Source: a virus
Direction: 5' to 3' (one strand)
DNA length: 64,000 bases
IMG/VR virus record: IMGVR_UViG_3300022200_000032
Coordinates: 1 to 64,000 of that record
The translations under genes were made by a program, and so were the position numbers. Below the pieces are notes generated by a model that worked only from the letters and a program-made list of their open reading frames with translations, was not told the DNA's origin and did not search any database. The stretch's first letter is position 1. The number at the start of each line of letters is the position of its first letter. Positions 7,642 to 32,064 of the stretch are shown piece after piece.

Positions 7642-8598
7642 ATGAGAGCAATGGTTGTAGGTGGTGCTGGGTTTATTGGGCACCACGTAGTCAAAGAACT
7701 TCGAGATTTAGATCACGAATGTATCGTCCTAGATAATTGGACTACCTACGGTATCCTAGAACCCAAAGCACATCAAAAGTTAATCGACGAACGCATTGAT
7801 TATATGGGACACCCTACAATGTGTCCGTGGGATATTGCTAGTACCAATCATATTAACTCGAGTTTTGAACGACATAACCCCGACGTTGTTATCCACTTAG
7901 CAAGTTTTCCACGTGCTAAAATTGTGAACACTAATCCATTGATGGCTCGTCATACTATGATTGATGGGCTAGAAAACCTGTTAACTGCGTCAGTTAATAC
8001 AGGTGTTAAGCGTTTTGTGTATATTAGTTCATCTATGGTATATGGCGACTTTGAAGGTGGCGTCACTGAAGATACTCCGTGTAAGCCTGGAAGCATTTAT
8101 GCTGCATACAAACACGCAGGCGAACTATTAACTAAACACTTTGCAGATAAGCACGATATGGATTATGCTGTTGTGCGTCCAAGTGCTGTGTATGGTCCTC
8201 GCGATGTCGAGGATCGCGTAGTAAGCAAGTTCTTTATGAACGCCATTCAGGATAAACCACTTAATGTAAATGGTATAAATGAAAAACTAGACTTCTCATT
8301 TGTAGAAGACGTAGCGCACGGTATTGTACTTGCTGCTACACATCCACTTGCTATGAATGAAACATTTAATATCACACGGGGCGAAGAGGACACTATCCTA
8401 CGTGCTGCTGAACTTGTTCGAGCAATTGTAGGCAAGGGCGATATTAATGTGCGCGAACGTGATATGAGTATGCCATCCCGTGGATACCTGAGTACAGACA
8501 AAGCATACCGGTTATTAAACTACGAACCACGTACTAACATAGATCAAGGATTCCCGCTTTATTATGAGTGGATTCAAAATTCCCTTCTTCGGGCTTGA
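7642..8598 (+). CDS. NAD-dependent NDP-sugar epimerase/dehydratase (extended SDR)
   Basis: GGAGFIG, HLAS, ISSSMVYG, YAAYK, RPSAVYGP, DFSFVED. Confidence 0.92.
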   Translation: MRAMVVGGAGFIGHHVVKELRDLDHECIVLDNWTTYGILEPKAHQKLIDERIDYMGHPTMCPWDIASTNHINSSFERHNPDVVIHLASFPRAKIVNTNPLMARHTMIDGLENLLTASVNTGVKRFVYISSSMVYGDFEGGVTEDTPCKPGSIYAAYKHAGELLTKHFADKHDMDYAVVRPSAVYGPRDVEDRVVSKFFMNAIQDKPLNVNGINEKLDFSFVEDVAHGIVLAATHPLAMNETFNITRGEEDTILRAAELVRAIVGKGDINVRERDMSMPSRGYLSTDKAYRLLNYEPRTNIDQGFPLYYEWIQNSLLRA

Positions 8599-9625
8599 AC
8601 GCCAGCACGCTTATTTAAAAGACGAATTACTAGAAGCAACCGACCGTGTTCTTGCTAGTGGGCAATGGATGGCTGGCGAAAACACAGAACAACTCGAGCA
8701 GTGGCTAGCACATAAAAATCATAGCCAGTACGCAATCACTACACACTCGGGCACTATTGCACTAGAAGCAATCGCAAAATACTACGAACGTTCTAATTAT
8801 ATTCCTGTTAAACGTGTGTTAATTCCTACACTAACATTTCCTGCTACTGCTAATGCATTTATTAATTCAGGATGGGATGTTGAGTTTTTAGATTGTAATC
8901 GTAATGGACAAGTGGAATGGCACAAACATGTGGATGGTAGCACAGAAGGTATTGCTGTTGGAGTTGGGTTATATGGCGAGTCAGTTTGGAATCATCCGCA
9001 TCTACCATTTATTGAGGATGGCGCACAGCATTGGTTAGCAGATGATTGCAGGCATCAAGGGTTAGCAACCACTATTTCATTTGATCCTACTAAAAACTTA
9101 CCTAGCACAGGCAACGGTGGCGCTATTGTTACTAATTCGGAAGTTATGTATGAATGGTTAAAGGGATACTTTAATCACGGAAAACATCACGTTCCATTTG
9201 CAGGCACAAACGCACGCATGAGCGAATTAGAAGCAGCACACTTATTGGTTCGTAAGAACTACTTGTTGGATTGGCAAAATAAGCGTCGGGCTATTGCTAA
9301 ACACTGGATCTATCGCTTTTCAGATACACCAGTTCGTGTTGTTATGAGCGATGTTATGTCGCACGGACTACAGAAATTTGTTATTGAAGTTGATAATAGA
9401 GATTATATACGAGTTCAGCTAGCAAGTGATGGTATCGAAACTCGCATTCATTATGAAAAGCCATTGCACGAACTAAAGCAATATGAAAAGTATAAAGGGC
9501 CAAACATGATGAGTGTTGCTAGTAGTTTAACTAGACGTGTATTAAGTTTGCCGTTTTATCCTGATTTGTCCGGCGACGAAGTAGAGTTTATAGCTGAACG
9601 GGTTCTACATTATACACGGAAATAA
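8564..9625 (+). CDS. DegT/DnrJ/EryC1/StrS PLP-dependent sugar aminotransferase
   Basis: SGTIAL, TFPATANA, IEDGAQ, SFDPTKNL (PLP Lys), GTNARMSE, LSLPFYP. Confidence 0.92.
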   Translation: MSGFKIPFFGLERQHAYLKDELLEATDRVLASGQWMAGENTEQLEQWLAHKNHSQYAITTHSGTIALEAIAKYYERSNYIPVKRVLIPTLTFPATANAFINSGWDVEFLDCNRNGQVEWHKHVDGSTEGIAVGVGLYGESVWNHPHLPFIEDGAQHWLADDCRHQGLATTISFDPTKNLPSTGNGGAIVTNSEVMYEWLKGYFNHGKHHVPFAGTNARMSELEAAHLLVRKNYLLDWQNKRRAIAKHWIYRFSDTPVRVVMSDVMSHGLQKFVIEVDNRDYIRVQLASDGIETRIHYEKPLHELKQYEKYKGPNMMSVASSLTRRVLSLPFYPDLSGDEVEFIAERVLHYTRK

Positions 9626-11615
9626 AGTACTCGCTTAACCATTTCCATTCGTAAGTTTTGCGAAGTTCATCAAAGTTTCCATCAACATTTTCATAGTAAG
9701 CAACACCATCTGCTGCGCCGCGCTTACTCCATTCTCCAATTGCACCGTCGCCTTTAGTTAACCATTGCTTTAAACGATACTGTGTATCCATTGTGGGGTC
9801 TGAATCCTTCAATTTAATCGCTTCACGGAATGCTGAACGCCATGCCGTCCATGGATCGTCTGCATAGTTAGCAATGCCACTTAACACAGGGACCACTTCG
9901 TGTTCCTGATCTAGTGTAAAGTCAAGACCTTGTGCTTTATTGTGTAGTGTTAAATCTTTGTGGTATGCAATCATTGCCATGTGTCCATATTCCAAACCAT
10001 TGACCGGATTTCGTGCATGAAAGATATAATGCTTATTCTTTTGCATGCGATCTGGTTGCCATGACCAATCAAAGTTTTCATCTACAGTCAGTTTAGCAAA
10101 CACACAAAATGCCCATGGTGTTTCGCTTAAACGCAATGCCGCCTGATATGCTTCCACACGTCCATTGATTCCATCACTGCGTACTACTCTATTGGGTTTG
10201 CCGCGCATTATTTCTTGTAGATGCTTCCAGTTTTTTTCAGCAATTTTTTCTCCATTAGAAATAAACACAACATCTAGTGGTTTGTCGATTAGCGTACTAC
10301 TATATGTTTTGTCAATATAAGGATAATCATACAATTCCCCAAAGATATGCGTTTTTGCGTCTCTAGGCACTACTACTACACTATTTCCTGTAGAAAGAGG
10401 CGTAATAGTGCGTGTTTTTTCTCTCCATAACGGAATAACTGGAGTGTTATCAACGAATCGGTCAGTAAATAATGTTAAAGGTTCCAAAAACGTATGTTCT
10501 TTAACAGCATCAACAATTGAATTACCATCTGTGTGTACTTCAGGAATATGCCAACGGGGAACATCGATATTGTCAACAAAATGGATCGTATCGTACCATT
10601 CAAGCAATTCAGTATTGGTAATGCGAACATTAAACGTTGGTATATTAATTAGAAACGTATCGCCAAACTTTTCGCCATTGCTTGGAAAAACATGTAACAT
10701 GGTTCCTTGCCATAATTCTGGATGCCAGGTGAAATCAAATTTAGAATAGTCACATACGCTTGAACATACCCATACATACTCGTGTTCTTCGCGTGATAAT
10801 ATACGCTGCAATGTGCCTTTATAGCTTGATATAAACCGAGCTATTTTTTTAACTGTCAATCCTTTTGATTCTAGCTGTTGTTTTACCTGTTCTGTTTCTT
10901 TGTTGCCGTGATCAATAAGATACACTTCTTTAGCAATAGAAATGTTTTTAACATTTGCTTGTGTCACGTATTTGGTTGCGCTGGCACCTTTGATTTCATA
11001 TAACGGTCCGCCAGTTTTTTGCCATTGTGTACCAAACTGGTAATTGTATGGTGGCTCTGTATTATCTGGATGCCAGGTATAATCAAATCCTTCGAGCTCA
11101 ACTCCTGCTGGAATCACCCAATTTGGGTCAATTGATATTTTACTTACACGAGGTTCCGTGACATACTTTATAGCGGAAGGATCTGCACCTGAACAAATAT
11201 ACACAGGACCTCCAGTTTTTTGCCACTGTGTACCAAATTTATATATCATTGGTCCTTCTGTTGGATCTGGATGCCATGAATAATCGAAGTCTGTATATGT
11301 TGTATCGTCCCAGTTTAAATAATCTGTTCTGCGAACGGCTATCATGTCATTGTGATAATTTGTGTCTGACCATCCTGCTTTTGGATATAAACCGGTACCA
11401 GAATCTTTCTGGTGTTGGCTGGCAAATACATGTCGCTGGTGTGCTTCCCAGGGTTTAGGTTCCCAAAGAAAATCAAACTCAGAATAGTCACATAAGTAAT
11501 GTATGATCCAGAAATACCTGGTTCTGCTTAACTCTTGTGCTTCTTCTATAGACTTTACTTCACGTTCGTGAGCAAATTGATTTGGTTTTTGTCCTATATA
11601 AAATACGTCAAACAT
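9588..11615 (-). CDS. Multi-module glycosyltransferase-like protein (internal repeats; C-terminal GT-A-like domain)
   Basis: C-terminal ~230 aa aligns with 28287..29201 (LDVV(F/Y), DG..G, NG L.YG, AWR..FRE..K); repeated FD..W.P motif. Confidence 0.6.
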   Translation of the reverse strand: MFDVFYIGQKPNQFAHEREVKSIEEAQELSRTRYFWIIHYLCDYSEFDFLWEPKPWEAHQRHVFASQHQKDSGTGLYPKAGWSDTNYHNDMIAVRRTDYLNWDDTTYTDFDYSWHPDPTEGPMIYKFGTQWQKTGGPVYICSGADPSAIKYVTEPRVSKISIDPNWVIPAGVELEGFDYTWHPDNTEPPYNYQFGTQWQKTGGPLYEIKGASATKYVTQANVKNISIAKEVYLIDHGNKETEQVKQQLESKGLTVKKIARFISSYKGTLQRILSREEHEYVWVCSSVCDYSKFDFTWHPELWQGTMLHVFPSNGEKFGDTFLINIPTFNVRITNTELLEWYDTIHFVDNIDVPRWHIPEVHTDGNSIVDAVKEHTFLEPLTLFTDRFVDNTPVIPLWREKTRTITPLSTGNSVVVVPRDAKTHIFGELYDYPYIDKTYSSTLIDKPLDVVFISNGEKIAEKNWKHLQEIMRGKPNRVVRSDGINGRVEAYQAALRLSETPWAFCVFAKLTVDENFDWSWQPDRMQKNKHYIFHARNPVNGLEYGHMAMIAYHKDLTLHNKAQGLDFTLDQEHEVVPVLSGIANYADDPWTAWRSAFREAIKLKDSDPTMDTQYRLKQWLTKGDGAIGEWSKRGAADGVAYYENVDGNFDELRKTYEWKWLSEYFISVYNVEPVQL
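10965..11290 (-). repeat. Two tandem ~67-aa (201-nt period) repeats FDYxWHPDxTE..FGTQWQKTGGPxY..KYVT
   Basis: ccagttttttgcca at 11011 and 11212; protein repeat visible in translation. Confidence 0.85.
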
Positions 11616-11623
11616 TATAAATT

Positions 11624-12745
11624 ATGATTAGAATTGATGAGTTATATGATAATACATTTTGGCCTTGGATGCAAGAAAATATTCCTGGAGTTAGAATGTT
11701 TTACTGCGATCCTCCGGGACACACCGGTGTTGAAAACTTATTTAACCGCGGTGAAGACTTTATATTAGAAAGTGATTATCTGTTTTTACATGATCAAGAA
11801 CCTGTAAACTTTGAAATATATAAAGATTTGTTTGATGACGTTGTTAGAAGAAATGATGATATTCAGCCGATTCCCGGTAATTGGAAGATAAAAGCACAAG
11901 GTGGTGTACTGGTTAGCGAGCGCGGCGAATATGTTGATCAGTTACGCCAAAGATACGGGTGGAAATCATATTATTATTTCTGGCACGGATGGGCTGCTCT
12001 CGATTGGTACAGAGGATACAACCGATCATTTTTAATCAAACGGGCCGCAGAACGAAAACCAACAAAAACCTTTATGTCTCCTAACCGCATTATTGGAGGT
12101 TATAGAGACCATCGTGTGTTGTTCTTATACGAAATATTCAAACGTGGTTTACAGAACAATCATCTCAGTGCACCACGAACTTGTCCGGTTGAGCATACTG
12201 ATATTACACATATTGCATCAAAATACCAAGATCAGATCCCAGATATCACTCGTGTGTTATCAACCGAAGAATTACCAATAACATTCGCTGGAGAAGATAC
12301 ACAAAAAATGTCCAGTTGTTGGCTAGATAATTTTAATATCGCTGCAGATAGTATGTTTTATGTCCCTACAGAAACCGTATACTTTGGCAAACGATTGCAT
12401 ATTACAGAAAAAACGTTTAAAGCAATAGCATTAGAAATGCCATTTATACTCGTGGCACCAGCACACAGTTTAGAGTATCTGCGTAGTTACGGATTTAAAA
12501 CATTTGGAAGTGTGATAGATGAAAGTTATGACGATGAAGAAGACGATTTGATTCGTTTACAAAAAGTCGGACAACTATTGGAAAACATAGAAAAATTACC
12601 AGAAAAAGAAAGAAAAAGTATCTGGAACCACTGTGTATCAATCGCAACATTTAATTATAATCATTTTTACAAAGGATCATTTGAACACATTCTTTGGAAA
12701 GAATTTGAGCTAATGCTAACTCATCTCAAGCATGATTACACATAA
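11624..12745 (+). CDS. Putative GT-B glycosyltransferase (GT10-like motif)
   Basis: VPTET...HITEKTFKAIALEMPFIL...YGFKTFGSVIDESYD. Confidence 0.5.
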   Translation: MIRIDELYDNTFWPWMQENIPGVRMFYCDPPGHTGVENLFNRGEDFILESDYLFLHDQEPVNFEIYKDLFDDVVRRNDDIQPIPGNWKIKAQGGVLVSERGEYVDQLRQRYGWKSYYYFWHGWAALDWYRGYNRSFLIKRAAERKPTKTFMSPNRIIGGYRDHRVLFLYEIFKRGLQNNHLSAPRTCPVEHTDITHIASKYQDQIPDITRVLSTEELPITFAGEDTQKMSSCWLDNFNIAADSMFYVPTETVYFGKRLHITEKTFKAIALEMPFILVAPAHSLEYLRSYGFKTFGSVIDESYDDEEDDLIRLQKVGQLLENIEKLPEKERKSIWNHCVSIATFNYNHFYKGSFEHILWKEFELMLTHLKHDYT

Positions 12746-13940
12746 ATTTTATATAGAACGCATGGGAAAAAGCACCATGGGTGCTGCTAAACCTTATCCT
12801 AATCTGGCAAAACATCAGGCACAACCGTATACCGCCGAGTGGAGGCAGTTTAGTGTAAACTGGCCATTTTCAGAACCTGTTATGCTATTTGAGTATATGG
12901 ATTATTGGAATGTTCGCTATGAATTAGTTCAACTTAAAGATACAAACAATAACACATTTTATCCTATTGCGCTTTCATTTTTTGACTTCTCTATAGACTG
13001 GTTTACACTATTTCCTGAAGAAGTTTTAAAGCGTGTACGAAATCAAAAACTGCGAGTCCTATTTTATTATAGCGAAGGCGATAATCCTGAATTAATCAAT
13101 GAACACTTAACTCAACAATGCATTCGCTATAATATTCCTAGAGAGCAAATACTATTTGTAAGCGCAAATTCTGCGTGCAGGGATATTCCATATTTCTATC
13201 ATGTTGTTGACGATGAACTTTTGTATAACTTTCGGAATAGAAAAATTTCCCCAGTACAGTATCACGACATGTACCGTAGTAAAAAGTTTACAGCACTTGT
13301 TAGAATGCACAAATACTGGCGGGCAAATGTCATGGCACGTTTATGGGAGCATGGAAATAATCAGGAAGGATACTTTGGGTATGGTAACAAAATTACCGCA
13401 GGCGAAACAGAGGATGACAACCCTATTGAAGTAGATAGTTTTGGTAATCTACGTGAACTAACTAGATTATTTTTAAAAGAACTCCCATTCAAAGCAGATA
13501 ATTTATCCTCTGCTGAACATAATACACATACTCGCAGCGTAATAGAACATTTCCATGACAGTTATTTAAACATTGTATTAGAATCACACATGGACGTGGA
13601 TCAAAGTTATGGAGCATTCCTAACCGAAAAAACATTTAAACCAATTAAAAACGCACAACCGTTTATTATATTTGGCGGTCCTTCTAGTTTGCGCTTATTA
13701 AGAAGAATGGGTTATAAGACGTTTGAAGGCATCATTGATGCCTCATATGACGATATTGTTGATACCTCAAAGCGTTGGAAAGCTGCAATTAATTTAACCT
13801 TAGACTTAATCAACTTAAATAACAAACAGTTAAACGACTTGTACAGAACATGTCGTAACGATTTAATACACAACCAAAATTTGTTCTTAGAGAACAAACA
13901 AAACAGATTACTAAAATTATTAGAGGATATACATGAGTAG
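12732..13940 (+). CDS. Putative GT-B glycosyltransferase (GT10-like motif)
   Basis: NIVLES...FLTEKTFKPIKNAQPFII...MGYKTFEGIIDASYD. Confidence 0.5.
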   Translation: MITHKFYIERMGKSTMGAAKPYPNLAKHQAQPYTAEWRQFSVNWPFSEPVMLFEYMDYWNVRYELVQLKDTNNNTFYPIALSFFDFSIDWFTLFPEEVLKRVRNQKLRVLFYYSEGDNPELINEHLTQQCIRYNIPREQILFVSANSACRDIPYFYHVVDDELLYNFRNRKISPVQYHDMYRSKKFTALVRMHKYWRANVMARLWEHGNNQEGYFGYGNKITAGETEDDNPIEVDSFGNLRELTRLFLKELPFKADNLSSAEHNTHTRSVIEHFHDSYLNIVLESHMDVDQSYGAFLTEKTFKPIKNAQPFIIFGGPSSLRLLRRMGYKTFEGIIDASYDDIVDTSKRWKAAINLTLDLINLNNKQLNDLYRTCRNDLIHNQNLFLENKQNRLLKLLEDIHE

Positions 13941-14985
13941 TCCAATCAACGCTTATACTTCCTGGGATCCATTGGAAGAAGTTATTGTGGGTCGTTGTTA
14001 CCCACCTGAATATTTTGAGTTCATTCAAGATGACCAAGTACGCAATCAATTGCAAAAAGTTCTGTCAGAAACAGAAGAGGATTTAGATAATTTACAAAAG
14101 GTATGTGAAACACACGGGGCTACTGTTCGCAGACCTGAACTTTGTATCACCAAAGACCAATTCTATATCTGGCAAACAAAGAATGGTGGCGCCCCATTAC
14201 CACCATTAACTCCAAGAGATTGGCAAATTACATTAGGCGACAAATTATTGCGTGTACTACAGATGCACGAATTAGATCATATTTGCAACGATTATGAAGC
14301 TCAAGGTGGCAATGTAATTAATCCGCATAAAGCAGCAGGCGGGTATGATGAAAACTGTATTTTAAATGGTGGTTCAGCCTCATGTATTGTGCGTGTGGGT
14401 CGAGATGTGTTTTTTGATAATTCAGAATTTTTAACCGAGGCGCAAAGCGGTTGGATTAAAGAAAACGTACTAAATGACCAAGACTATCGTTTTCATGAAG
14501 CTCGTACAGAAGGTCACGGCGATGCTGTGTTTGCAATTTTAAAGCCTGGAGTTATTCTTAGCACTTATCATGCAGATGACCTTAACTTAGAAGCAGAGTT
14601 TCCTGGTTGGGATTTCTTACGTCTAAACGATAGTTCTATTATTGCTGCACAAATGATCGGACGTGTTAAAGAAGAAAATCGATTAGACGAAGCATGGTAT
14701 CTTCAGGGAGATAAACCAACTGATCAATTCCGTGACTATGTTAACAACTATCTAAGCCATTGGTTAGGATATATTGAAGAAACTGTGTTTGATGTTAACT
14801 GTTTAGTGTTAGATGAACAAAACGTTGTTTTTTCTGCTGAAAATAAAGAAGTATTCAAGTTTTGCGAAAAGCACGGCATTAATCCTATTGTATCTCCGCT
14901 GCGTCATCAGTATTTCTGGGATGGTGGTATTTCTTGTTGCACCCAAGATATTAGACGTCGCGGTGGATTAGAAACTTATCTTTAA
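13933..14985 (+). CDS. Amidinotransferase (glycine/inosamine-phosphate amidinotransferase family)
   Basis: WDPLEEVIVG, PRD, GHGD, FDVNCLVLD, GGISCCTQD (catalytic Cys); GAGGA SD. Confidence 0.85.
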   Translation: MSSPINAYTSWDPLEEVIVGRCYPPEYFEFIQDDQVRNQLQKVLSETEEDLDNLQKVCETHGATVRRPELCITKDQFYIWQTKNGGAPLPPLTPRDWQITLGDKLLRVLQMHELDHICNDYEAQGGNVINPHKAAGGYDENCILNGGSASCIVRVGRDVFFDNSEFLTEAQSGWIKENVLNDQDYRFHEARTEGHGDAVFAILKPGVILSTYHADDLNLEAEFPGWDFLRLNDSSIIAAQMIGRVKEENRLDEAWYLQGDKPTDQFRDYVNNYLSHWLGYIEETVFDVNCLVLDEQNVVFSAENKEVFKFCEKHGINPIVSPLRHQYFWDGGISCCTQDIRRRGGLETYL

Positions 14986-17963: not shown

Positions 17964-18061
17964 TTGTAGATAAATGGATCGCGCTTACGTAATTCTTTTA
18001 GTTTCTTTCTGTAACGGATTTCGAGTTTAATCTTGTTCCAGAGTCGTTTAAAAATATTCAT
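17960..18061 (-). CDS. 33-aa basic microprotein ending DPFIYK (SxtK/DUF5989-like ends)
   Basis: Below ORF-track cutoff: MNIFKRLWNKIKLEIRYRKKLKELRKRDPFIYK; TAATG overlap upstream and ATGA overlap downstream. Confidence 0.8.
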   Translation of the reverse strand: MNIFKRLWNKIKLEIRYRKKLKELRKRDPFIYK

Positions 18062-22603: not shown

Positions 22604-24257
22604 TTAACAATAATGCCTCTAACTCAGGAATATGATCTAAAATATTTTCTTTACGTATGACATCCAGTTGATGTGTTTTATCCCAAAACTTTTGTAACAA
22701 ATAAGTTTTATCACACGATAGCATGTTTATTGCTGACATGAATCCATTGGTTGCCCTACGTAAATGATCATTAGGCTCTAACCATTCCAGATGTGCCACG
22801 AACGATTTTCTTATTTTTTCTTTATATGCAGGAGTAGCAATATCAATTCGGTAGAACAGAGGATCTTGCAAAATGTTAACATTAAAATCTTGTGGCTTAA
22901 TAAATCCTTTTTCTACCCAATTTTTATGAAAATCTGTGATGTGTAATGCATTCATAATGCTTAATGTAGGACTAACATAAAAATCTACATGGGGACACAT
23001 TTCCATCATTAATTGTCTATTCTGTTCTACATCTTGCCACTTTGTTCCTGAACGAATATATTCTGCATGTTTTCCCATTCCATCAAGACTTGCACCGACA
23101 GCAACGTTCGAAAAATGTTGCCATTGTTCAAACGCATGCTTGTCTTTGAGTTTGACTTGTGTGAAATTTGTATTATATATTAACCTAACATCAGTCATAT
23201 TGCGTTTAATAAGTTCGTCAAGTATAATATAATGTTCTTCCATGACCAGAGGCTCGCCTCCCGCAAAATAAATCTGTTCTACGCAATCAATATGTTCTAA
23301 CAATTGTTCGAGCATGTCTGTCTCGTAACGACCAGCATATACTTTTGGTTTATTATTGCTTGCCCATTCTGGACCTGCCAAAAGGGCTTGATCCTTGTAC
23401 CATTGACTACTGAAAATATGACCACAGCTACGGCATTTCAAATTACACAAATTACTAAATCGTATATCCCAATATGCCAGTTCAAATTTCTCGTACGTTC
23501 CATCTGGTTGTGTTTCTAAAACACGTTCGATTAGATGTCCGTGATGCTTATTTGCACTCTGTCTTCCAGAAAAGAAGCCATAACCCTCTTCTTCATAACA
23601 TCTGGAGCAAGCAACACTTTCTTTATCACGTAACATGTTCAAACGTAATTCTTTCATTGCGTTTGAATTCCAAATTTCCTCCAGTGTATTGTCTCTGCAA
23701 TTTCCTACTGTTCCTGCTGGGTCTGCCATACAACATGGCATGGCCTCTCCAGTTGGATAAGCATGTAAATGAATCCAAGGATATATGCAAAATACTTTGC
23801 TATCAGTAAGTAAATATTTTTCTTTATCAGAAATATTTTCAAGTGAAATTTTCAAAGGATTGATTGATCCATATGCGTATGCTTCTTTTTTACTAGATGG
23901 ATGCAGTTGTAAAATTTTTCTTTCAAAATCACCATCTACAATTTTGTAAGAAATTGGCACTGGATCATGACTAATTTGTTGTAATAATGTTAATTCATGT
24001 GCAATATGTGTATTTGTTGATTCTATTATGACGAACGCATTGCTGATATCAACTTCGTTAAGAATTGTTTGTATATTACGCAACACTAGTCCAAGATTAG
24101 ACTTTTTAACATACATATCCCCAGTATGTTTCAAAATAATTCTTTCTTCAGGCTGGTATACTTCTTTGTAAATTTCTCGCAATTGTTGTTCAAATTTTTG
24201 CTGGGAACGTTGGTATGTTTCGTTCATCCAATAACTCAACTCAATTTCATAAATCAT
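22596..24257 (-). CDS. Radical SAM protein with accessory N-domain and twitch domain
   Basis: CIYPW..PCC..ACSRC, CNLKCRSC, GGEP, YNTNFT, ASLDG; likely start MIYEIEL at 24257. Confidence 0.92.
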   Translation of the reverse strand: MIYEIELSYWMNETYQRSQQKFEQQLREIYKEVYQPEERIILKHTGDMYVKKSNLGLVLRNIQTILNEVDISNAFVIIESTNTHIAHELTLLQQISHDPVPISYKIVDGDFERKILQLHPSSKKEAYAYGSINPLKISLENISDKEKYLLTDSKVFCIYPWIHLHAYPTGEAMPCCMADPAGTVGNCRDNTLEEIWNSNAMKELRLNMLRDKESVACSRCYEEEGYGFFSGRQSANKHHGHLIERVLETQPDGTYEKFELAYWDIRFSNLCNLKCRSCGHIFSSQWYKDQALLAGPEWASNNKPKVYAGRYETDMLEQLLEHIDCVEQIYFAGGEPLVMEEHYIILDELIKRNMTDVRLIYNTNFTQVKLKDKHAFEQWQHFSNVAVGASLDGMGKHAEYIRSGTKWQDVEQNRQLMMEMCPHVDFYVSPTLSIMNALHITDFHKNWVEKGFIKPQDFNVNILQDPLFYRIDIATPAYKEKIRKSFVAHLEWLEPNDHLRRATNGFMSAINMLSCDKTYLLQKFWDKTHQLDVIRKENILDHIPELEALLLNE

Positions 24258-25605
24258 TATACCATGCTCCAATGTGTGCAAATGTATCAGTTATACTCTT
24301 TCCACGTCGACGATCATACTGTGCATAAAATTTCTTAAAATCGTTGTGTAATGCTGACATATCAAATGTGTCCGAATGCGGTGTCTTAACTACATCCAGA
24401 TAATCAATTAACCGCTGTACTTGGTTAATTTCCATTTCGTGCAACAGTATGTTTTTATATGCGTGTTCTTCTAACCAAGTGTCTAATTTATCTGCATAAT
24501 CCATACGTAGATCTTCTGGCAACACCAACGGTGACTGAAAACTCGGAAAACGTAATATGTTTAATGTGAAAGTTGGATAATTTTTTCCGTATTGCTTTTT
24601 TAATTCTAACATCCAATCCAAAAACTCAGTCAATGATTCTAAACACAACGCATTAATAGTACACATAACATGAAATCCATTTACGCTACCTTCTGTAATA
24701 ACACGATGTACGTTACGCTCCCATTGTTCCCAATTTAACCCATCACGTATATATTCTGCATGAGCACTCATGCTTTCTTGCGACGTGTATAACTGGAAAT
24801 CTTTAATGTTGTGACTTGCTTCAATTAACTTATCAATCTTTTCATCTTCGATTCCAAGATTAGAGTTAAGTGCAAACGACACTTCTGATTCATTATTAAT
24901 ATACCAATCAATGAGTCGCATAGTATGCGGGCTCATCATTGGCTCGCCACCAGTTAATCGTAATTCTTGTAACGTTTTATGTAAGTCCGATTCCCACCAT
25001 TTAAAGAATGCTTCTACGTAGGGATTTTCTTCTTTGGGTTTAAACAACTGTGCTGAATCGTGTGTGTGGGTGAAATGGTTACGCCCATCTGATATTAGAT
25101 CTGTGTAAGGTCCGTTCTTTTTCAAATCCGTTACCCAACTTGTACTGAATGCTGGATTGCAGTATGAACACGAAAATTGACACGTCCTGTCAAATGCAAT
25201 TTCTAATGTTTTTAAGTCAATATCTGTTTCAGGATTTGCTGCCATTGCTGTAACAACATCCCACTCATCGTAGATCACAGTTTTATAAACACGATCTGAA
25301 ATGTTGTCGCGGCCGATATCTTCAATTTTCCAGCAATATTCACAACCCGCCGGACGTTCTGAATGCTGCATCATACGGCGTTCATCTTTCTTTTTGCGTG
25401 TATTGTGTAGCGCCTTCGGATTAGCAGTTACTTCATCAACACTCACATGATGCGGAAGTGGATGATGACAACTCGTGGTCATACCAGATCCTAACCAAAT
25501 GGTAGCATTATACCATTTAGCCGCACAAAAACTTGTACTGAACTCATCTATCCATTTTTTAATTTCAAGATCCGTTTCTCGACCTGGTTTACGCAATTTA
25601 CTCAT
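24247..25605 (-). CDS. Radical SAM protein with N-terminal twitch-like domain (CxAKW subtype)
   Basis: FCAAKW..SCHHP..GCEYCW, CQFSCSYC, TGGEP, NSNLG. Confidence 0.92.
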   Translation of the reverse strand: MSKLRKPGRETDLEIKKWIDEFSTSFCAAKWYNATIWLGSGMTTSCHHPLPHHVSVDEVTANPKALHNTRKKKDERRMMQHSERPAGCEYCWKIEDIGRDNISDRVYKTVIYDEWDVVTAMAANPETDIDLKTLEIAFDRTCQFSCSYCNPAFSTSWVTDLKKNGPYTDLISDGRNHFTHTHDSAQLFKPKEENPYVEAFFKWWESDLHKTLQELRLTGGEPMMSPHTMRLIDWYINNESEVSFALNSNLGIEDEKIDKLIEASHNIKDFQLYTSQESMSAHAEYIRDGLNWEQWERNVHRVITEGSVNGFHVMCTINALCLESLTEFLDWMLELKKQYGKNYPTFTLNILRFPSFQSPLVLPEDLRMDYADKLDTWLEEHAYKNILLHEMEINQVQRLIDYLDVVKTPHSDTFDMSALHNDFKKFYAQYDRRRGKSITDTFAHIGAWYNDL

Positions 25606-25614
25606 ATGTTTTAC

Positions 25615-27036
25615 TTAATTAGACTGTGATTGTTGTGCAAAATATTTGCACTCGTTCCACCAGGTAGACATTTCTGGAAAAGTTTTCAAAAAATTAAACT
25701 CGTGTCGTCTGTCGTATTCGTTGAAGAAACGATAAAAATCTGCCTTATTTTGTTCTAGATTTTCAGCAGGCTGGCGCATCCATGCGATATCTCTATCCAT
25801 TCGATTAATTTCGTAATCTTTAAACCCTTTAAACCGTGTATCTGGAGTTTCACAATGCTCGATCATCCAGGTCATCAATTCTTCCAATCTATCTGCATAC
25901 ATATCTGGGAGTAAACGCATACTTTGCCAATTGGGCGTGTGTAATACAGGGGTATCAAACCACACACGCTGATATGTGTCTGAGTAAACCTGCCTTAATC
26001 CGTGTATAGCAGGAATGAGTTTATCCAGACTGGTAATCGATAAGTTATTCATAGTGATGATAAACGTTAGACTACTTCTATACGGTACTTCTGTTAAAAA
26101 TTGATTAACCCGATCCCACATTAAATCAAAATTTAGCCCTGCTCGCATATATTCTGCTTGCTTTCCGAATCCGTCAAGTGACACGTACTGCATAAAATGC
26201 TCAACATTTTCGCCATCATTGCAAATACGCTTAACATAATCTAGATACTTGTTCCATAGTTTCTGTTCTACAGATAAGTTAGATGTCACGTTAATATGCA
26301 AGTCAGGTTTTGGATTTTCTAATACATAATCAAATACGCGATATGTATTTTTATCCATTAAAGGTTCGCCACCAGTCATACGGAAGTGTTTTAGGTCTTT
26401 ATATAATTCTGGCCACCATTCCCAGAATGCTTCTACATACGGGTTATATTCAGAATGCGGAATAGGTCTACGGTCGCCTTGGAAATAAGCAGGATCGTTG
26501 TGCGGTTGGCTTGTAGGATAGGCGCCATATTCTTTTGCTTGACGCATCCACGAGCTGCTAAATTGAGGTGAACAATAACTACACTCTAAATTACAAGCAG
26601 AGTTGAAGTTCACTTCAACATACGCAGGATTAGTGTCTGCCATTGGGTCAGACACAACCTCATCAAACTTTTCAATAGCCCACGGTTCTCCCGAACGGTA
26701 GTGTCTATCAGAAAGTTTTCCGTTGTCTTCCATTGCCCAGCAATAAAAGCACTCCTCGGGTCTCCTCCCCTCCATCATGTGTTTGCGTTGTAGTTTTTTA
26801 TAATCGGTGTTATGCAACTTACTGGGATTTCCAGTAAGTTCATCTACAGGAATTTTATGCAATGGCGGATGATAACATGAGTTATTCATGCCATTAGTTA
26901 GATGTAATGAAACTTGTTTCCATTTAGCCAAACAAAAGCTCGGACTCACAGTATCTAGCTTTTGTTGTGCTATTTCAGCATCAGATAAGAACTTTGATTT
27001 AAAATCCTTGTCTACCTCATCACCTTTGTTTTGCAT
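25615..27036 (-). CDS. Radical SAM protein with N-terminal twitch-like domain (CxAKW subtype)
   Basis: FCLAKW..SCYHP..ECFYCW, CNLECSYC, TGGEP, TSNLS, VSLDG. Confidence 0.92.
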   Translation of the reverse strand: MQNKGDEVDKDFKSKFLSDAEIAQQKLDTVSPSFCLAKWKQVSLHLTNGMNNSCYHPPLHKIPVDELTGNPSKLHNTDYKKLQRKHMMEGRRPEECFYCWAMEDNGKLSDRHYRSGEPWAIEKFDEVVSDPMADTNPAYVEVNFNSACNLECSYCSPQFSSSWMRQAKEYGAYPTSQPHNDPAYFQGDRRPIPHSEYNPYVEAFWEWWPELYKDLKHFRMTGGEPLMDKNTYRVFDYVLENPKPDLHINVTSNLSVEQKLWNKYLDYVKRICNDGENVEHFMQYVSLDGFGKQAEYMRAGLNFDLMWDRVNQFLTEVPYRSSLTFIITMNNLSITSLDKLIPAIHGLRQVYSDTYQRVWFDTPVLHTPNWQSMRLLPDMYADRLEELMTWMIEHCETPDTRFKGFKDYEINRMDRDIAWMRQPAENLEQNKADFYRFFNEYDRRHEFNFLKTFPEMSTWWNECKYFAQQSQSN

Positions 27037-27045
27037 AATGGTATA

Positions 27046-28209
27046 TCAGAGATATTTGTTGGGGCCTGATCCATCACGATGTAAATCATTCGTAATACAG
27101 TGAATACCAGCATCCCAAAAATATTTGTGTCTAAATGGCGATACATGGACCTCAACTCCGTGTCTTGCGCATGCCTCTTCAACTTGGTCATTATGTGCTG
27201 ATACAATTACATTCTTTTGATCTATCACTAGCATGTTTACATCAAATACAGTTTCATGTACTTCCCCAACCCATTCATCAAAATAATGGTCTACCATTGC
27301 TGTCATGTTAGGATCTTTTTCAAAACCTGGAAAGAACCAACGACCTTTATTGCGCTTCATTGAAAATTCAAATTCACGCATATGAGCGTAATTTGAATCT
27401 GGCAAATATACAACTTCCCAATCTGGGAAGGTATCTTTATATGTTGGAATATCATGTAAACTAATAATTAAACCAGGTGTTACTGGACAATATACAGCGT
27501 CACCGTGACCACCTGCATTTACGATCTTATTAGTGGTATTAGGGAAATACTCGTTAACCTGATCGAGCAATGTTTTCTTATCATCATGAAATGTTTGTGT
27601 TGCAAACATCAAGTCTTGTCCCAGTCGGCTAACAAAGCATCCATTGATAAAATCTAGATCAGTATACTCAATAGTATTACTGTTATTTCTTAAATCATCA
27701 AAAATATGATCATAGAATTTTAATTTGGCATCCAGATGATTCTGATCAAATTTTTGAAATTGTTCAAATTTCGCACGGACTTCATCAGCAAATTGTGGCC
27801 AGTCATTATAGAAATCTAATGGACGAACATAATCTGGCCAGTATTCTTGTTTATTTTGTCTGTAAAAAACTGACCAGGCATGACTGCCATTGGGTATTTT
27901 GGGTACCCAAAATTTGTCCCCAATCATGATAAAGTAATCACGAGGTGCGGTCGGTGGCTGCACCCACTTACCATCAATATAAAGTTCATTCATATTTTCT
28001 GGAAATTCTGGACGCACAGTTCGTACACCGAACTTGCCTTCTAGTAATTTAATTAAGTTTTGGTAATCTTCTTCTGTTTCTTCTGCTAATTTTTCAAAAA
28101 TACCCCGTGTTTGGGTATTTTCAATCCAAGAATAAAACTCTGGTGGGTAAGTCTTCCCTACCATGCAATATTTCAAAGGATCCCAGTGTTGATATACTGA
28201 ATATGACAT
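27046..28209 (-). CDS. Amidinotransferase, second paralog
   Basis: WDPLKYCMVG, PRD, GHGD, FDVNMLVID, AGIHCITND. Confidence 0.85.
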   Translation of the reverse strand: MSYSVYQHWDPLKYCMVGKTYPPEFYSWIENTQTRGIFEKLAEETEEDYQNLIKLLEGKFGVRTVRPEFPENMNELYIDGKWVQPPTAPRDYFIMIGDKFWVPKIPNGSHAWSVFYRQNKQEYWPDYVRPLDFYNDWPQFADEVRAKFEQFQKFDQNHLDAKLKFYDHIFDDLRNNSNTIEYTDLDFINGCFVSRLGQDLMFATQTFHDDKKTLLDQVNEYFPNTTNKIVNAGGHGDAVYCPVTPGLIISLHDIPTYKDTFPDWEVVYLPDSNYAHMREFEFSMKRNKGRWFFPGFEKDPNMTAMVDHYFDEWVGEVHETVFDVNMLVIDQKNVIVSAHNDQVEEACARHGVEVHVSPFRHKYFWDAGIHCITNDLHRDGSGPNKYL

Positions 28210-28286
28210 TAAAGTTTTCTCATTTTATATGTTTCGATGTAATTAGTCAATTGTTGTAGGAGCATAATAATTTTTATTTCCTGTCA

Positions 28287-29201
28287 TCAATGGATAACAT
28301 CTATTTCGCGCACAGTGGCGCCCATGTTGTACCAGTTACTACGATAATGGTGTTTGAAGAATTTACTTGTTGTTTCGTCCATATACATAACAGGCAAGTC
28401 TAAACGTTCTTGCAATGCATGTCCATAATATTCGCTTTGTTCTGCAATTTGATCTGTGTGTACTTGTTCGTCGAAAATACGCTCTAAATTGTCAAACCAC
28501 TGTACTTCAGTATGATCCCAATCCGAAAGCATAGTCATGCACGTTCCCATTCTTGCGCCAAGAATGGCATATTCGCCAAACTCTACATCACGACCAACGT
28601 TCTGCCATACCGTTAAATGATCCATGTTACGCTTGTGAACAGCATCTTTAAATTCTGTTTCTGTTGGTTTGCGTCCGCGGTCTAAACACATTTTAACACC
28701 TTCTCTAAAGCCTGCTCTCCAAGCATGAAATGCTGATCCATTTGGGTATGTTGTAGAATAACAGTCGTGCATTGGCCAATACAATGGATCAAAACAAAAC
28801 TCAACATTTGTATCAGCAGAACCGTCAGATGCTTCGTGAGTTTTCATATTCATAATAAACTCACGTGTCCAGCAACTTAGTCCACCGTTACCGTACATGA
28901 GTCCATTAATATGATTAACTGCCCTCCAACGAAATACAGCTTTCTCATATTCAGGTGTTTTCATTTCCAATTGCAGATTGAAAAATTCTGGGTTTGGCAA
29001 ATTGTCACCATCAATAAGCACAAAACGTTCTGTTGTGCTTGCTTCTGCTGCTGCTTTGTGTGCTGCATCTGATCCTTTTACTCCGTCAACACGAACTGCC
29101 CAGGGCACCATGTTTTTAATTTTTACCCAAAATTCTTCTTTCTGTGGCTCGTCATAGCTCAGGTATACGACGTCCAAATCGGCGATATCAATCAAGTTCA
29201 T
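28287..29201 (-). CDS. Putative GT-A fold glycosyltransferase
   Basis: LDVVYLSYDE, VRVDGVKG..AAHKAA, FVLIDGD (DxD); likely start MNLID at 29201. Confidence 0.65.
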   Translation of the reverse strand: MNLIDIADLDVVYLSYDEPQKEEFWVKIKNMVPWAVRVDGVKGSDAAHKAAAEASTTERFVLIDGDNLPNPEFFNLQLEMKTPEYEKAVFRWRAVNHINGLMYGNGGLSCWTREFIMNMKTHEASDGSADTNVEFCFDPLYWPMHDCYSTTYPNGSAFHAWRAGFREGVKMCLDRGRKPTETEFKDAVHKRNMDHLTVWQNVGRDVEFGEYAILGARMGTCMTMLSDWDHTEVQWFDNLERIFDEQVHTDQIAEQSEYYGHALQERLDLPVMYMDETTSKFFKHHYRSNWYNMGATVREIDVIH

Positions 29202-29526
29202 ATGTTTTGTTCTTCCAGTATATTGATTTAGTTGTGTTTGATACAATGGTCACATCTTTGGGATGTGTTGGAAAACCACTGTCTCCAGGAACCAGTTTTC
29301 CAATCGATTCGTGTCTGATATACACAATCTTGTTATTTTTTATGCAGATGTCATATCGAGATTCATTATATGTTTTTTTATCAATCACAATGTACACTCC
29401 CGGTTCGTCTTGTGTAGTATAAAATAAAGGAGTCCCAGATTGATCATCATAATACAAGCGATATTCTAATTCAATCAGCTTCTGATTTTGATCAACCTGA
29501 TCGAGTGCTTCCCAAAAGTGTGTCAT
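29188..29526 (-). CDS. Hypothetical protein between glycosyltransferase genes
   Basis: Overlaps both neighbours; EYRLYYD motif. Confidence 0.75.
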   Translation of the reverse strand: MTHFWEALDQVDQNQKLIELEYRLYYDDQSGTPLFYTTQDEPGVYIVIDKKTYNESRYDICIKNNKIVYIRHESIGKLVPGDSGFPTHPKDVTIVSNTTKSIYWKNKTYELD

Positions 29527-30328
29527 AATGTTTGTTTACTATTTTACTAAATTCTTTAATATTATAATGGAACGGATATTCTTGGTCAACTGTGTTAATT
29601 CTGATATTGGAACCATCTAATTCCCAAATTAATTCTCGTGTCCAATCTTCTTGTAGTAATCCATTAATTTTTCCCTTCATGTGAATTAAACTTGGGTAAC
29701 TGACTGATGGTGGTAATGTTACATTTTCCACACCAATAATTTGCGCAGCAAGTGCATATACAACATCGGTTGTTCCTGGATCATCACTTCCACCTTTGAT
29801 TGTTGCTTGAAAAGCTGGCCAATTTTCAAAAATATTTCTGACTAAATTAAAGAACTGTTGTGCTGTTCTACTTAGGCGCCAATAAGTAATGGCGTTATAA
29901 ACATCAGGTAAACCATTTAAATCAAATATTTTACGATAATGTCGCATATTTGACCGCTGATTCAAATAATTGCGTGCGCCTGTTGTTAATACAACGTCTT
30001 TGTGCTCAAACATTGTCCACCAGTGCCAGATACTATGCGGAATAATCATATCTGCTTCCAGCTTAATTGTTTGCCTAAATGGACTCGCCGTAAAAATTTG
30101 CCAATCATTTTTAAGTTTCCACTGGCTATCTGATGCCTGATCTCCATATGGCAATGGCTTTACAAAGTCAAATACTGGATCAGTAACTTCAGATGAAGTT
30201 ACCAAGCACACTTTTGCTTGCGGAGTATGATACTTTAGAGAACGTGCCAGAGCGCGAGCGCAGTCAATATAATCAACTTCGCTTGTATTTTCTGCCACAA
30301 TCAAATAGCCGCGTTCTGCTTCAACCAT
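29492..30328 (-). CDS. Putative nucleotide-diphospho-sugar transferase (GT8-like, GT-A)
   Basis: RGYLIVA..DY..CARALARSLK, SPFRQTIKLEADM, TTDVVYA, IHMK; paralog of 30321..31142. Confidence 0.65.
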   Translation of the reverse strand: MVEAERGYLIVAENTSEVDYIDCARALARSLKYHTPQAKVCLVTSSEVTDPVFDFVKPLPYGDQASDSQWKLKNDWQIFTASPFRQTIKLEADMIIPHSIWHWWTMFEHKDVVLTTGARNYLNQRSNMRHYRKIFDLNGLPDVYNAITYWRLSRTAQQFFNLVRNIFENWPAFQATIKGGSDDPGTTDVVYALAAQIIGVENVTLPPSVSYPSLIHMKGKINGLLQEDWTRELIWELDGSNIRINTVDQEYPFHYNIKEFSKIVNKHYDTLLGSTRSG

Positions 30329-31142
30329 TTATCATCTTCTCCAGTGAAAACTTGTTTAAAAAATGTATATCATGATCATCAACTACGATGCGCACAGGAC
30401 GTTCGATATGATTTTTATACTTAACATATTCTATCTCAAACTTACGAGCATCTAACTGGTTAATCTCTGCATTATCACTAATCATTGGCATATTCCAGGG
30501 AATTTCGGGAATAGCATTGATGCGGTGTCCGTAAACAATGCCTAATGCAATGCTTACAACATAGTCATTTCTAAACGGACTTGACCTAAACTTGTAGATA
30601 CGTGAATAATGTGCATAATTCTCACGTATCATTTTAATTGTATCAAATATTGTTTTAGCGAACTCTGTTTTTCTAAAGAAGATAACGGTTGCCCAGTAAT
30701 GTGGGAAATAATATTTAGGTAAAAAGTCGTATGGTTGGAAACTTTTTCTATCTGTAATATCGTATGGTTTACGATGTACTAAAAAATCTTCAGGAGATTC
30801 AAATAGAGCAAGTAGCTGTTCGCTATTAACAATATAATCTGAATCGATAACAACAGTTTCGTCATATGGAGTCAAGTCAAATGCTTGGAAACGATTAACA
30901 TTCTTCCATTCAGCAACGTTTCCATCTTTGTGTATATTAAAATTACGTTGATGTCCTGCTAGTGCTTCTGTTAAAATTAAATTGTGTTTGACGTTTTCTT
31001 TTGTGCTAGCACTTGCTTCATCGGTAACAATACTTGTTGGCAATTTTAAGATAGATTCAATGCGGTCAGCAATCCACAAAGCATGTCCTAAATAATCAAT
31101 CACTTCATTGTTAAACGCAAATATTAAAAAACCACGAGTCAT
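30321..31142 (-). CDS. Putative nucleotide-diphospho-sugar transferase (GT8-like, GT-A)
   Basis: RGFLIFA..DY, TPYDETVVIDSDY (DxD), WATVIFF, FRNDY, IHFLNK. Confidence 0.7.
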   Translation of the reverse strand: MTRGFLIFAFNNEVIDYLGHALWIADRIESILKLPTSIVTDEASASTKENVKHNLILTEALAGHQRNFNIHKDGNVAEWKNVNRFQAFDLTPYDETVVIDSDYIVNSEQLLALFESPEDFLVHRKPYDITDRKSFQPYDFLPKYYFPHYWATVIFFRKTEFAKTIFDTIKMIRENYAHYSRIYKFRSSPFRNDYVVSIALGIVYGHRINAIPEIPWNMPMISDNAEINQLDARKFEIEYVKYKNHIERPVRIVVDDHDIHFLNKFSLEKMING

Positions 31143-31991: not shown

Positions 31992-32020
31992 ATTATACAG
32001 GAAGTTGAGTCAAAAGTAAA
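31992..32020 (-). promoter_or_regulatory. Sigma70-type promoter overlapping the terminator; near-leaderless transcript
   Basis: Minus strand TTTACT-N17-TATAAT, then 10 nt to ATG at 31981. Confidence 0.55.
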
Positions 32021-32040
32021 GGGCCGTTAAGCCCTTTACT
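32011..32040 (-). terminator. Rho-independent terminator ending the structural operon
   Basis: Perfect 10-bp stem AGTAAAGGGC/GCCCTTTACT, 6-nt loop, followed by TTT on minus strand, 24 nt after stop of 32065..33054. Confidence 0.85.
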
Positions 32041-32064
32041 AATTTCAATGCAACGCTTGAATTA

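Follow-up and report, generated by a model that had tools for sequence, protein, structure and literature searches.

The DNA analysed here (the window) is the first 64 kb of the IMG/VR record IMGVR_UViG_3300022200_000032, whose parent contig is 77,855 bp long. The region under study is a 23.5-kb cluster (positions 7642–31142) of glycosyltransferase-like, sugar-enzyme and radical S-adenosylmethionine (SAM) genes. The source is a fragment of an uncultured freshwater giant (jumbo) phage. The contig was rated 22% complete by CheckV, which gives a genome of about 350 kb. The window encodes a T4-type portal and a baseplate protein, and its AAA ATPase was 48% identical to the ATPase of the PA5oct group. 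Near-identical DNA was found in freshwater metagenome sequencing runs, one of them perhaps the source sample, with no RNA run among those listed, and a megablast search of the whole cluster against cultured phages gave no match.

An original prediction for this DNA had described about 22 contiguous, mostly translationally coupled genes, and this layout was recovered. The cluster consists of 21 open reading frames (ORFs) of 112–675 residues each plus one 33-codon ORF, arranged in four strand blocks, and nearly all ORFs overlap or lie 9 nt apart on their own strand. The only gaps in the minus-strand block were 77 nt (28210–28286) and 97 nt (17964–18060), the latter being occupied by the 33-codon ORF. 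The features and the evidence for each assignment were as follows.

7642–8598, plus strand: nucleoside diphosphate (NDP)-sugar epimerase/4,6-dehydratase of the short-chain dehydrogenase/reductase (SDR) type, accessory (Pfam Epimerase 1.3e-44)
8564–9625, plus strand: DegT/DnrJ/EryC1-type sugar aminotransferase, accessory (Pfam 1.2e-48)
9588–11615, minus strand: 675-residue core protein, C-terminal third paralogous to GT-A, without DxD (hhalign 99.8%, 4.9e-28)
11624–12745, plus strand: TEK-motif protein, first paralogue (blastp paralogy 1e-11)
12732–13940, plus strand: TEK-motif protein, second paralogue (blastp paralogy; motif)
13933–14985, plus strand: StrB1/AGAT-type amidinotransferase 1, accessory (profile against PDB)
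14982–15734, minus strand: putative sugar O-methyltransferase, weak call (phrog_6608 7.8e-8)
15725–17215, minus strand: NodU/CmcH/TobZ-family carbamoyltransferase, core (Pfam, both domains)
17208–17963, minus strand: UDP-glucose/GDP-mannose dehydrogenase-like protein without the C-terminal UDP-binding domain (Pfam)
17961–18062, minus strand: 33-codon ORF (read from the intergenic sequence)
18061–19149, minus strand: core protein, beta-barrel resembling cyclophilin with an inserted helical bundle (AlphaFold2 model)
19124–20446, minus strand: N-terminal-twitch radical SAM, orthogroup 1 (NF033640 290.6 bits; CxxxCxxC)
20433–21674, minus strand: N-terminal-twitch radical SAM, orthogroup 2 (NF033640 338.9 bits; support 100)
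21635–22603, minus strand: degenerate radical SAM paralogue (NF033640 83.2 bits, model positions 1–118 only)
22596–24281, minus strand: N-terminal-twitch radical SAM, orthogroup 3, with an extra N-terminal extension of about 150 residues (NF033640 387.6 bits, residues 161–557; support 100)
24247–25605, minus strand: N-terminal-twitch radical SAM, orthogroup 4 (NF033640 299.5 bits; support 99)
25615–27036, minus strand: N-terminal-twitch radical SAM, orthogroup 5 (NF033640 325.4 bits)
27046–28209, minus strand: StrB1/AGAT-type amidinotransferase 2, with an insertion of about 50 residues (blastp 30% identity, 7e-52 to 13933–14985)
28287–29246, minus strand: GT-A-fold glycosyltransferase-like protein with invariant D-G-D (AlphaFold2, Foldseek, VIA)
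29188–29526, minus strand: conserved 112-residue core protein (41 loci, median 38% identity)
29492–30328, minus strand: GT8-like (glycogenin-like) glycosyltransferase (profile against glycogenin 1.5e-5; phrog_1903)
30321–31142, minus strand: GT8-like paralogue of 29492–30328 (blastp 1e-6 to its neighbour; phrog_1903)
31992–32055 (within 32065–31981), minus strand: G+C hairpin, then a sigma-70-like site TTTACT-17-TATAAT (promoter scan 10/12; consensus match only)

The core of this cluster was conserved in order across related phages. Retrieval from IMG/VR with the carbamoyltransferase gave 38 related stretches at 49–88% identity, and retrieval with the radical SAM gene 25615–27036 gave 106. The core was syntenic in five relatives that are at least 91% complete (316–352 kb) and in about 100 IMG/VR loci. 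The order shared by the five relatives was the giant protein and fibre genes, two GT8-like genes, the small ORF, the GT-A gene, the radical SAM array, the 18061-type gene, the carbamoyltransferase, the 9588-type gene, and a module of ATPase, HNH and ThyA genes. Presence was counted only in loci with enough flank on the relevant side. On this basis, 65 of 76 loci carried the GT-A gene and 63 of 71 the GT8-like genes. Fibre genes stood no more than 10 kb away in 59 of 64, the array numbered five or six radical SAM genes in 35 of 47, and 25 of 31 encoded the 675-residue protein. Of the 25 loci that reach far enough on the accessory side, 9 had the SDR and DegT genes, 4 the TEK-motif genes and 3 the amidinotransferase. 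The conserved core thus carries an accessory cassette of amino-sugar, amidino, methyl and TEK-motif genes, and the guanidino and O-methyl chemistry would be a lineage-specific add-on to a simpler system. The expectation that these genes keep company and order in relatives was borne out. The proposed guanidino/carbamoyl/O-methyl glycan fared unevenly: sugar building and decorating were supported, with the carbamoyltransferase in the core, and the amidino and methyl genes turned out to be accessory. In one 352-kb relative (G002), about 13 radical SAM genes stand in a row in the same slot (composite positions 8673–29047), and this relative has no orthologue of 18061–19149.

Six radical SAM genes had been proposed; five were intact and the sixth proved degenerate. 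The NCBIfam model NF033640 (N_Twi_rSAM; cut-off 170 bits) matched the five at 290.6–387.6 bits with the CxxxCxxC motif intact. In Pfam, the SPASM domain precedes the Radical_SAM domain, and the alignment contains four invariant cysteines in the twitch region, with CxxxCxxC in the five genes. The product of 21635–22603 keeps the twitch cysteines and has lost CxxxCxxC and most of the barrel. This ORF and 22596–24281 share the N-terminal extension of about 150 residues, and the orthologues in four complete relatives are without it. The N-terminal 160 residues of 22596–24281 were considered as a remnant of a duplicated barrel; this identity was rejected, the BLASTP match to a bacterial radical SAM-SPASM protein having an E value of 0.41. 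The tblastn matches of the 22596–24281 region were carried by its twitch/SPASM part and not by the extension.

A quick maximum-likelihood tree was built without the degenerate copy, ORFs shorter than 250 residues and ORFs lacking an ATG start. In this tree, each of the five intact window genes fell in its own orthogroup with one gene from each of the four complete relatives, at SH-aLRT (Shimodaira–Hasegawa-like approximate likelihood-ratio test) supports of 96–100. The array is thus old, with each member separately maintained, rather than a set of recent copies. Orthogroups 4 and 5 form a subfamily that contains the single copy of the Ralstonia jumbo phage RsoM2USA, and 25615–27036 was 37% identical to ORF349 of that phage.

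The NF033640 family is very common in metagenomes, and 20433–21674 matched more than 7,300 database protein clusters at E ≤ 1e-10. A search of the family against PDB found nothing close (best E 0.28), and the literature search on NF033640 returned no paper and no characterised member. The family is rare in bacteria: among 401 sampled Pseudomonadota genomes, 2 carried it above the cut-off; a single-protein scan of bacterial genomes yielded ordinary radical SAM-SPASM proteins only. In the first of the two genomes, four tandem copies lie on a chromosomal contig with dnaE and accA. Their neighbours are RmlC, RmlD and Wzm at one end and, at the opposite end, a WbsX glycosyltransferase and two methyltransferases, one of them of the TylF family (4e-106). 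The NF033640 gene of the second genome has a GT2 gene and an SDR epimerase gene as neighbours. This bacterial polysaccharide context is the strongest argument that the family may act on sugars. The first of the four copies in the first genome (G110) is part of an 854-residue ORF (L169:8579–11143, minus strand) that joins a Wzt ABC ATPase, a Wzt_C glycan-binding domain and the N-terminal-twitch radical SAM; the other three copies come after it. In the cultured Vibrio phage K566 (255 kb), four divergent N-terminal-twitch radical SAM genes (14013–20749) lie among hypothetical genes, with no detectable homologues of the window glycosyltransferase genes nearby.

The glycosyltransferase-like genes were supported to different degrees. 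Six had been proposed, and three of these stood, namely one GT-A gene with a DxD-type motif and, on a partial profile match, the two GT8-like genes. The GT-A gene, 28287–29246, is the most conserved core gene outside the radical SAM array. Its AlphaFold2 model (predicted local distance difference test score, pLDDT, 90.7) consists of a GT-A domain and a helical domain, and Foldseek returned 28 PDB matches at E ≤ 1e-3, GT-A throughout, with the capsid glycosyltransferase A64R of PBCV-1 (2p6w) at the top (6e-5). With VIA, Z scores of 8–9.6 were obtained over residues 18–170, the best being B4GALNT1 at 9.6, with nucleotidyltransferases of the same superfold also at Z of about 8. This similarity extends no further than the general GT-A fold, as template-modelling scores were 0.29–0.41 and many unrelated GT-A enzymes score alike. 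D79 and D81 of the D-G-D motif were invariant in 36 orthologues, and the Pfam GT2 model Glyco_tranf_2_3 gave 16.5 bits, under its cut-off of 27. The GT8-like pair, 29492–30328 and 30321–31142, had no Pfam match; their profile matched glycogenin over the first ~100 of 272 positions only. Their consensus carries L-E-A-D-M with an invariant Asp and an invariant His254, putative counterparts of the DxD metal site and the distal His of GT8 enzymes.

The remaining three genes of the six were not sustained as glycosyltransferases in the same way. The C-terminal third of 9588–11615 is homologous to 28287–29246, with A-K-L where D-G-D aligns. No Pfam, NCBIfam or PDB sequence match was found for this protein, and Protein Atlas led to unnamed viral clusters only. 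Its N-terminal part shows a recurring motif of the D-Y..F-D-F.W.P type followed by H-V-F several residues on, with a related form in the GT-A-like C-terminal domain. This recurrence suggests that the protein may be built from degenerate GT-A-like repeats. The 9588–11615 type gave four tandem matches in one relative. The two TEK-motif genes belong to one family with a third paralogue at 2004–3107. A GT10-like identity of the pair was not supported by any profile: it came from the motif and a sub-threshold Atlas lead of 0.78–0.79, while none of 27 family members matched GT10 PF00852 at E ≤ 1, no other Pfam model matched, and the family profile found no glycosyltransferase in PDB. Protein Atlas again gave unnamed viral clusters only.

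PDB sequence searches with profiles of 18061–19149, 28287–29246, 9588–11615 and the TEK-motif family returned nothing useful. The core protein 18061–19149 was modelled with a pLDDT of 89.9 and has 28 invariant columns in 36 orthologues. Foldseek found no match to it in PDB. The best VIA scores (Z 7–8.4, to cyclophilins and helical bundles) are inside the stated noise band of the tool, and BFVD returned ten uncharacterised phage proteins only, one of them from Atu_ph07. The 33-codon ORF next to it encodes a basic helix with P-F-I-Y-K as its last residues. Both ends of this ORF overlap the neighbouring genes, the 18061-type gene and the dehydrogenase-like gene, and it lies near the carbamoyltransferase. 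Its product contains no Cys, Ser or Thr, and that of the 112-residue ORF contains one Cys.

Among the sugar-building and decorating enzymes, the epimerase, DegT, amidinotransferase and carbamoyltransferase calls of the original prediction all held. For the SDR gene, the top NCBIfam models were dTDP-glucose 4,6-dehydratase, GalE and LegB, all under cut-off, and for DegT the top model was PseC (107 bits, under cut-off). The amidinotransferases had no Pfam match. A profile of the two window genes and six orthologues matched StrB1 (1bwd, 3.1e-42), AGAT (1jdx, 3.9e-39), HsvA (1.5e-34) and SxtG (1.9e-32) in PDB. H195, D197 and C335 were invariant in the eight sequences and align to the H-V-D and H-C motifs of StrB1, with Ser instead of His before the catalytic Cys in 13933–14985. 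In the carbamoyltransferase, both domains were above the gathering score: Carbam_trans_C at 1.5e-51 (174.8 bits, cut-off 27) and Carbam_trans_N at 1.8e-34 (120.1 bits, cut-off 24).

Two further calls were upheld in part. The predicted UDP-sugar dehydrogenase 17208–17963 has the central domain (Pfam 1.9e-27), the N domain (6e-13), a GxGxxG Rossmann start and the catalytic Cys motif G-G-H-C-F-P-K-D, and the C-terminal UDP-binding domain is missing. The gene predicted as a TylF-like methyltransferase, 14982–15734, had methyltransferase matches, all of them weak. The best was phrog_6608, followed by the TDP-rhamnose 3'-O-methyltransferase CalS11 (0.0037, residues 113–171) and Pfam Methyltransf_24 (0.19), and one orthologue was found among the related loci.

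No membrane segment was detected in any cluster ORF (19-residue window, Kyte–Doolittle mean ≥ 1.6). Pfam and the membrane-segment scan together revealed no ABC transporter domain, Wzm/Wzt exporter or membrane-bound initiation enzyme among the cluster ORFs. A self-contained lipid-linked export pathway is therefore excluded. DHFR and ThyA genes adjoin one cluster end, ThyA after DHFR, and the claim that ThyA is canonical was confirmed (Pfam 5e-105). The neighbours on the fibre side were, as predicted, rich in Ser and Thr (30%, 19%, 19% and 18%) relative to the cluster enzymes (8–14%). Ser/Thr richness is common in fibres.

Promoter scans were read as consensus matches only. The hairpin and the promoter-like site separate the cluster from the fibre genes and lie just upstream of the first cluster-side gene. 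Further promoter-like sites were located at 29589–29561 and 28250–28222, just upstream of 29526 and 28209. The sigma-70-like scan gave 70 sites against 76 by chance, and the three best minus-strand sites alone were just upstream of gene starts. The T4 late-promoter motif TATAAATA was depleted, with 1 site in 64 kb against 7.3 expected, and is thus not in use in this phage.

Glycan tailoring is a well-supported function for this locus. From the enzyme families, folds, synteny, lack of membrane segments and bacterial polysaccharide context observed above, we infer the chemical steps, their order and the acceptor. The region would encode a pathway without membrane components, which builds a sugar chain in the infected cell and edits it chemically, with virion protein as the likeliest single acceptor, a reading to which we give a probability of roughly 60%. 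The two GT8-like transferases and the GT-A transferase would build a short glycan out of nucleotide sugars supplied by the host. The five N-terminal-twitch radical SAM enzymes might then each make a different hydrogen-abstraction edit on sugar carbons. Precedents for such edits are epimerisation, oxidation to a ketone and deoxygenation. The NodU/TobZ-type enzyme would O-carbamoylate the glycan. The accessory SDR and DegT enzymes may supply an amino-deoxy sugar, the two StrB1-like enzymes could convert its amines to guanidino groups, and the weakly called O-methyltransferase could add methyl groups.

As acceptor, the fibres or the neighbouring giant structural protein are the most likely single candidate. 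The virion acceptor of the original prediction fits the position of the cluster and the interleaving of the RsoM2USA genes with virion-protein genes. The hairpin and promoter-like site between the cluster and the fibre genes make their co-transcription uncertain. A more specific proposal is that each of the 5–13 radical SAM enzymes makes a different radical edit on an already assembled, protein-linked virion glycan, which in this phage would also be guanidino-cationic and capped by carbamoyl and methyl groups; in this full form it is tentative and unlikely.

Several points weigh against the virion-glycan pathway. The product, substrate and acceptor have all been deduced from gene content, and none was observed. 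Two of the six glycosyltransferase-like genes were without profile support and one further was without DxD. The hairpin and promoter-like sites suggest that the cluster has transcription starts of its own rather than readthrough from the fibre genes. For the NF033640 family, neither a characterised member nor a relative in PDB was found, so that its presumed sugar chemistry is deduced from the neighbouring genes. Peptide maturation is the more usual role of SPASM/twitch enzymes, and the window radical SAM proteins had weak NCBIfam matches to the maturases SCIFF, PapB and YhhB (8e-8 to 2e-5, far under cut-off). In addition, the bacterial homologues appear to belong to an export pathway, and a host-surface glycan would fit them as well as a virion glycan does.

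The rivals, from the most to the least probable, are a polysaccharide of the host surface, radical SAM chemistry on protein, a small molecule and DNA. In host-surface remodelling, the soluble enzymes would modify the lipid-linked precursor of the host O-antigen or capsule at the cytoplasmic face and a host exporter would move the polymer, which would block superinfection or the loss of progeny on debris. In favour of this explanation, bacterial relatives of the radical SAM enzymes stand in a Wzm/Wzt O-polysaccharide cluster, one of them fused to Wzt, and the authors of a pelagimyophage study preferred the same role for fibre-adjacent GT8/lipopolysaccharide (LPS)-type genes that occur with radical SAM cassettes (PMC7029224). 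However, an initiating transferase, a flippase, a transporter and any other membrane protein are missing from the cluster, the place of the cluster beside fibre genes is fixed in 59 of 64 loci, and the RsoM2USA genes are interspersed among genes whose products were detected in virions by mass spectrometry. No integrase was seen in the 78-kb contig, a weak point as the contig is 22% of the genome. Surface conversion is typical of temperate phages. Overall, we consider host-surface remodelling unlikely. It is quite improbable that the radical SAM array acts on protein instead, making cross-links or epimerised residues in a fibre, the giant structural protein or a small peptide, with the glycosyltransferases as a separate system. 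Such a role would match the maturase-like domains and weak maturase matches given above and the adjoining structural genes. Still, Pfam and NCBIfam reported no RRE/PqqD domain in any window radical SAM protein, the cluster contains no Cys-rich or repeat-rich small ORF as a candidate precursor peptide, and the bacterial homologues stand among sugar genes, one fused to a glycan-binding Wzt.

A diffusible small molecule resembling an aminoglycoside, aminocyclitol or saxitoxin, directed at the host or at competitors, would account for the StrB1/SxtG-like amidinotransferases, the TobZ/SxtI-family carbamoyltransferase, DegT and the BtrN-style twitch radical SAM enzymes, and a similar trio was named 'antibiotic synthesis genes' in a cyanophage (PMC12801897). 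The distribution of the genes points the other way, with the amidinotransferase (3 of 25) and DegT (9 of 25) accessory and the glycosyltransferases and radical SAM genes core. Searches of the cluster ORFs with Pfam and NCBIfam, which left several ORFs without family, yielded no gene for a cyclitol synthase, an exporter or self-resistance. This makes a small molecule very improbable. The lowest probability falls to DNA hypermodification, in which the transferases, carbamoyltransferase and radical SAM enzymes would decorate a modified phage base. The cluster end does abut DHFR and ThyA, and there are reports both of NodU-type carbamoylation of 5-hydroxymethylcytosine in phages and of radical SAM steps in the hypermodification of thymidine. 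DNA modification is nevertheless less likely because ThyA is canonical and paired with DHFR, and because the five relatives at least 91% complete had no TET/JBP match, a weak negative as no control genome gave a match either, and at most one ThyA-family gene (three had none). To our knowledge, GT8 and GT-A are not folds of DNA glucosyltransferases.

Compared with known systems, the virion-glycan pathway is closest to RsoM2USA (MG752970). In the same place and order, this phage has the giant virion protein, SDR ORF358, fibre-like ORF355, GT8 ORF353/352, ORF351, GT-A ORF350, radical SAM ORF349 and GT-A-like ORF348. The product of 28287–29246 was 39% identical to ORF350 and that of 30321–31142 was 30% identical to ORF353. 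ORF361, ORF359 and ORF356, which flank ORF348–353 and ORF358, were detected in virions by liquid chromatography–tandem mass spectrometry (PMC8504454). RsoM2USA differs in having one radical SAM gene, and the 33 kb examined include no gene for a carbamoyltransferase, an amidinotransferase or DegT. Its genes of this kind are all annotated as hypothetical. With the NF033640 family at large, the array shares the twitch cysteines before the CxxxCxxC barrel; here it comprises five old orthogroups, with up to 13 genes in a relative.

In T4-like pelagimyophages and cyanomyophages, the fibre module adjoins a variable region with GT8 genes, LPS-type sugar genes and radical SAM cassettes, for which a change of the host O-chain was favoured (Zaragoza-Solas et al. 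2020, PMC7029224). The window core, in contrast, keeps a strict gene order throughout a deep clade of 316–352-kb genomes and has a carbamoyltransferase, fixed radical SAM orthogroups and no membrane protein. The likeness to PBCV-1 A64R, a soluble virus-encoded GT-A enzyme, is a fold-level match only. Giant algal and amoebal viruses and some mycobacteriophages (capsid and tail) encode their own glycosylation. We know of no radical SAM, carbamoyl or amidino tailoring in the glycosylation of PBCV-1 or mycobacteriophages, and of no radical SAM array there. The Wzm/Wzt O-polysaccharide cluster of the bacterial genome G110 shares the N-terminal-twitch radical SAM enzymes, while the phage cluster is without Wzm, Wzt and membrane segments. 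Streptomycin, tobramycin and saxitoxin pathways (StrB1, TobZ, SxtG, SxtI) share the amidino- and carbamoyltransferase families; no genes for a cyclitol or toxin scaffold were detected among the cluster ORFs of the window.

Radical SAM modules have been described in the T4-like Campylobacter phages CP220/CPt10 (PMC2853527), and a trio of DegT, radical SAM and amidinotransferase genes in cyanophage S-SCSM2R (PMC12801897), in both cases with no link to glycosyltransferases or fibres. In these reports (PMC2853527, PMC12801897), the many radical SAM genes and the glycine/inosamine amidinotransferase were left unexplained. Together with the pelagimyophage region, they are purely descriptive precedents for the gene content. 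The S-SCSM2R amidinotransferase was 30% identical to 13933–14985. A tblastn search with a window radical SAM protein (E ≤ 1e-5) did not reach CP220/CPt10 or S-SCSM2R, and thus their radical SAM proteins are not close relatives. The literature search found no paper that combined a jumbo phage and radical SAM with a carbamoyltransferase or glycosyltransferase.

If the more specific proposal of radical edits on an assembled virion glycan is true, neither radical SAM editing of a glycan that is already complete nor a guanidino-sugar coat on a virus would have a precedent, and very abundant freshwater and marine jumbo phages would use such a glycan for adsorption or protection. If the NF033640 enzymes edit sugars, the family would hold unexplored carbohydrate chemistry and would explain the conserved investment of 15–30 kb by an abundant clade of aquatic jumbo phages. 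Guanidino sugars are rare in nature, and the amidinotransferase pair would offer a way to make them. The minimal version in RsoM2USA makes the question directly testable.

Further features were noted around the cluster. A single 5,047-residue ORF (35416–50559, minus strand) had patchy identity of 21–40% to the virion protein ORF361 (>288 kDa) of RsoM2USA, and its orthologues in complete relatives were 43–47% identical. Near-perfect sigma-70-type promoters (TTGAC-17/18-TATAAT) were found at 836, 3126 and 63632 (plus strand) and at contig position 65540 (plus strand), upstream of the ATPase, HNH-like, 63663 and Rad50-like genes. Beyond the window, a seventh radical SAM gene of a different kind (contig positions 67322–69076, plus strand) has an N-terminal radical SAM domain and a weak short-chain dehydrogenase match. 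It comes after Mre11/Rad50-like genes, and copies of it occur inside the radical SAM arrays of some relatives.

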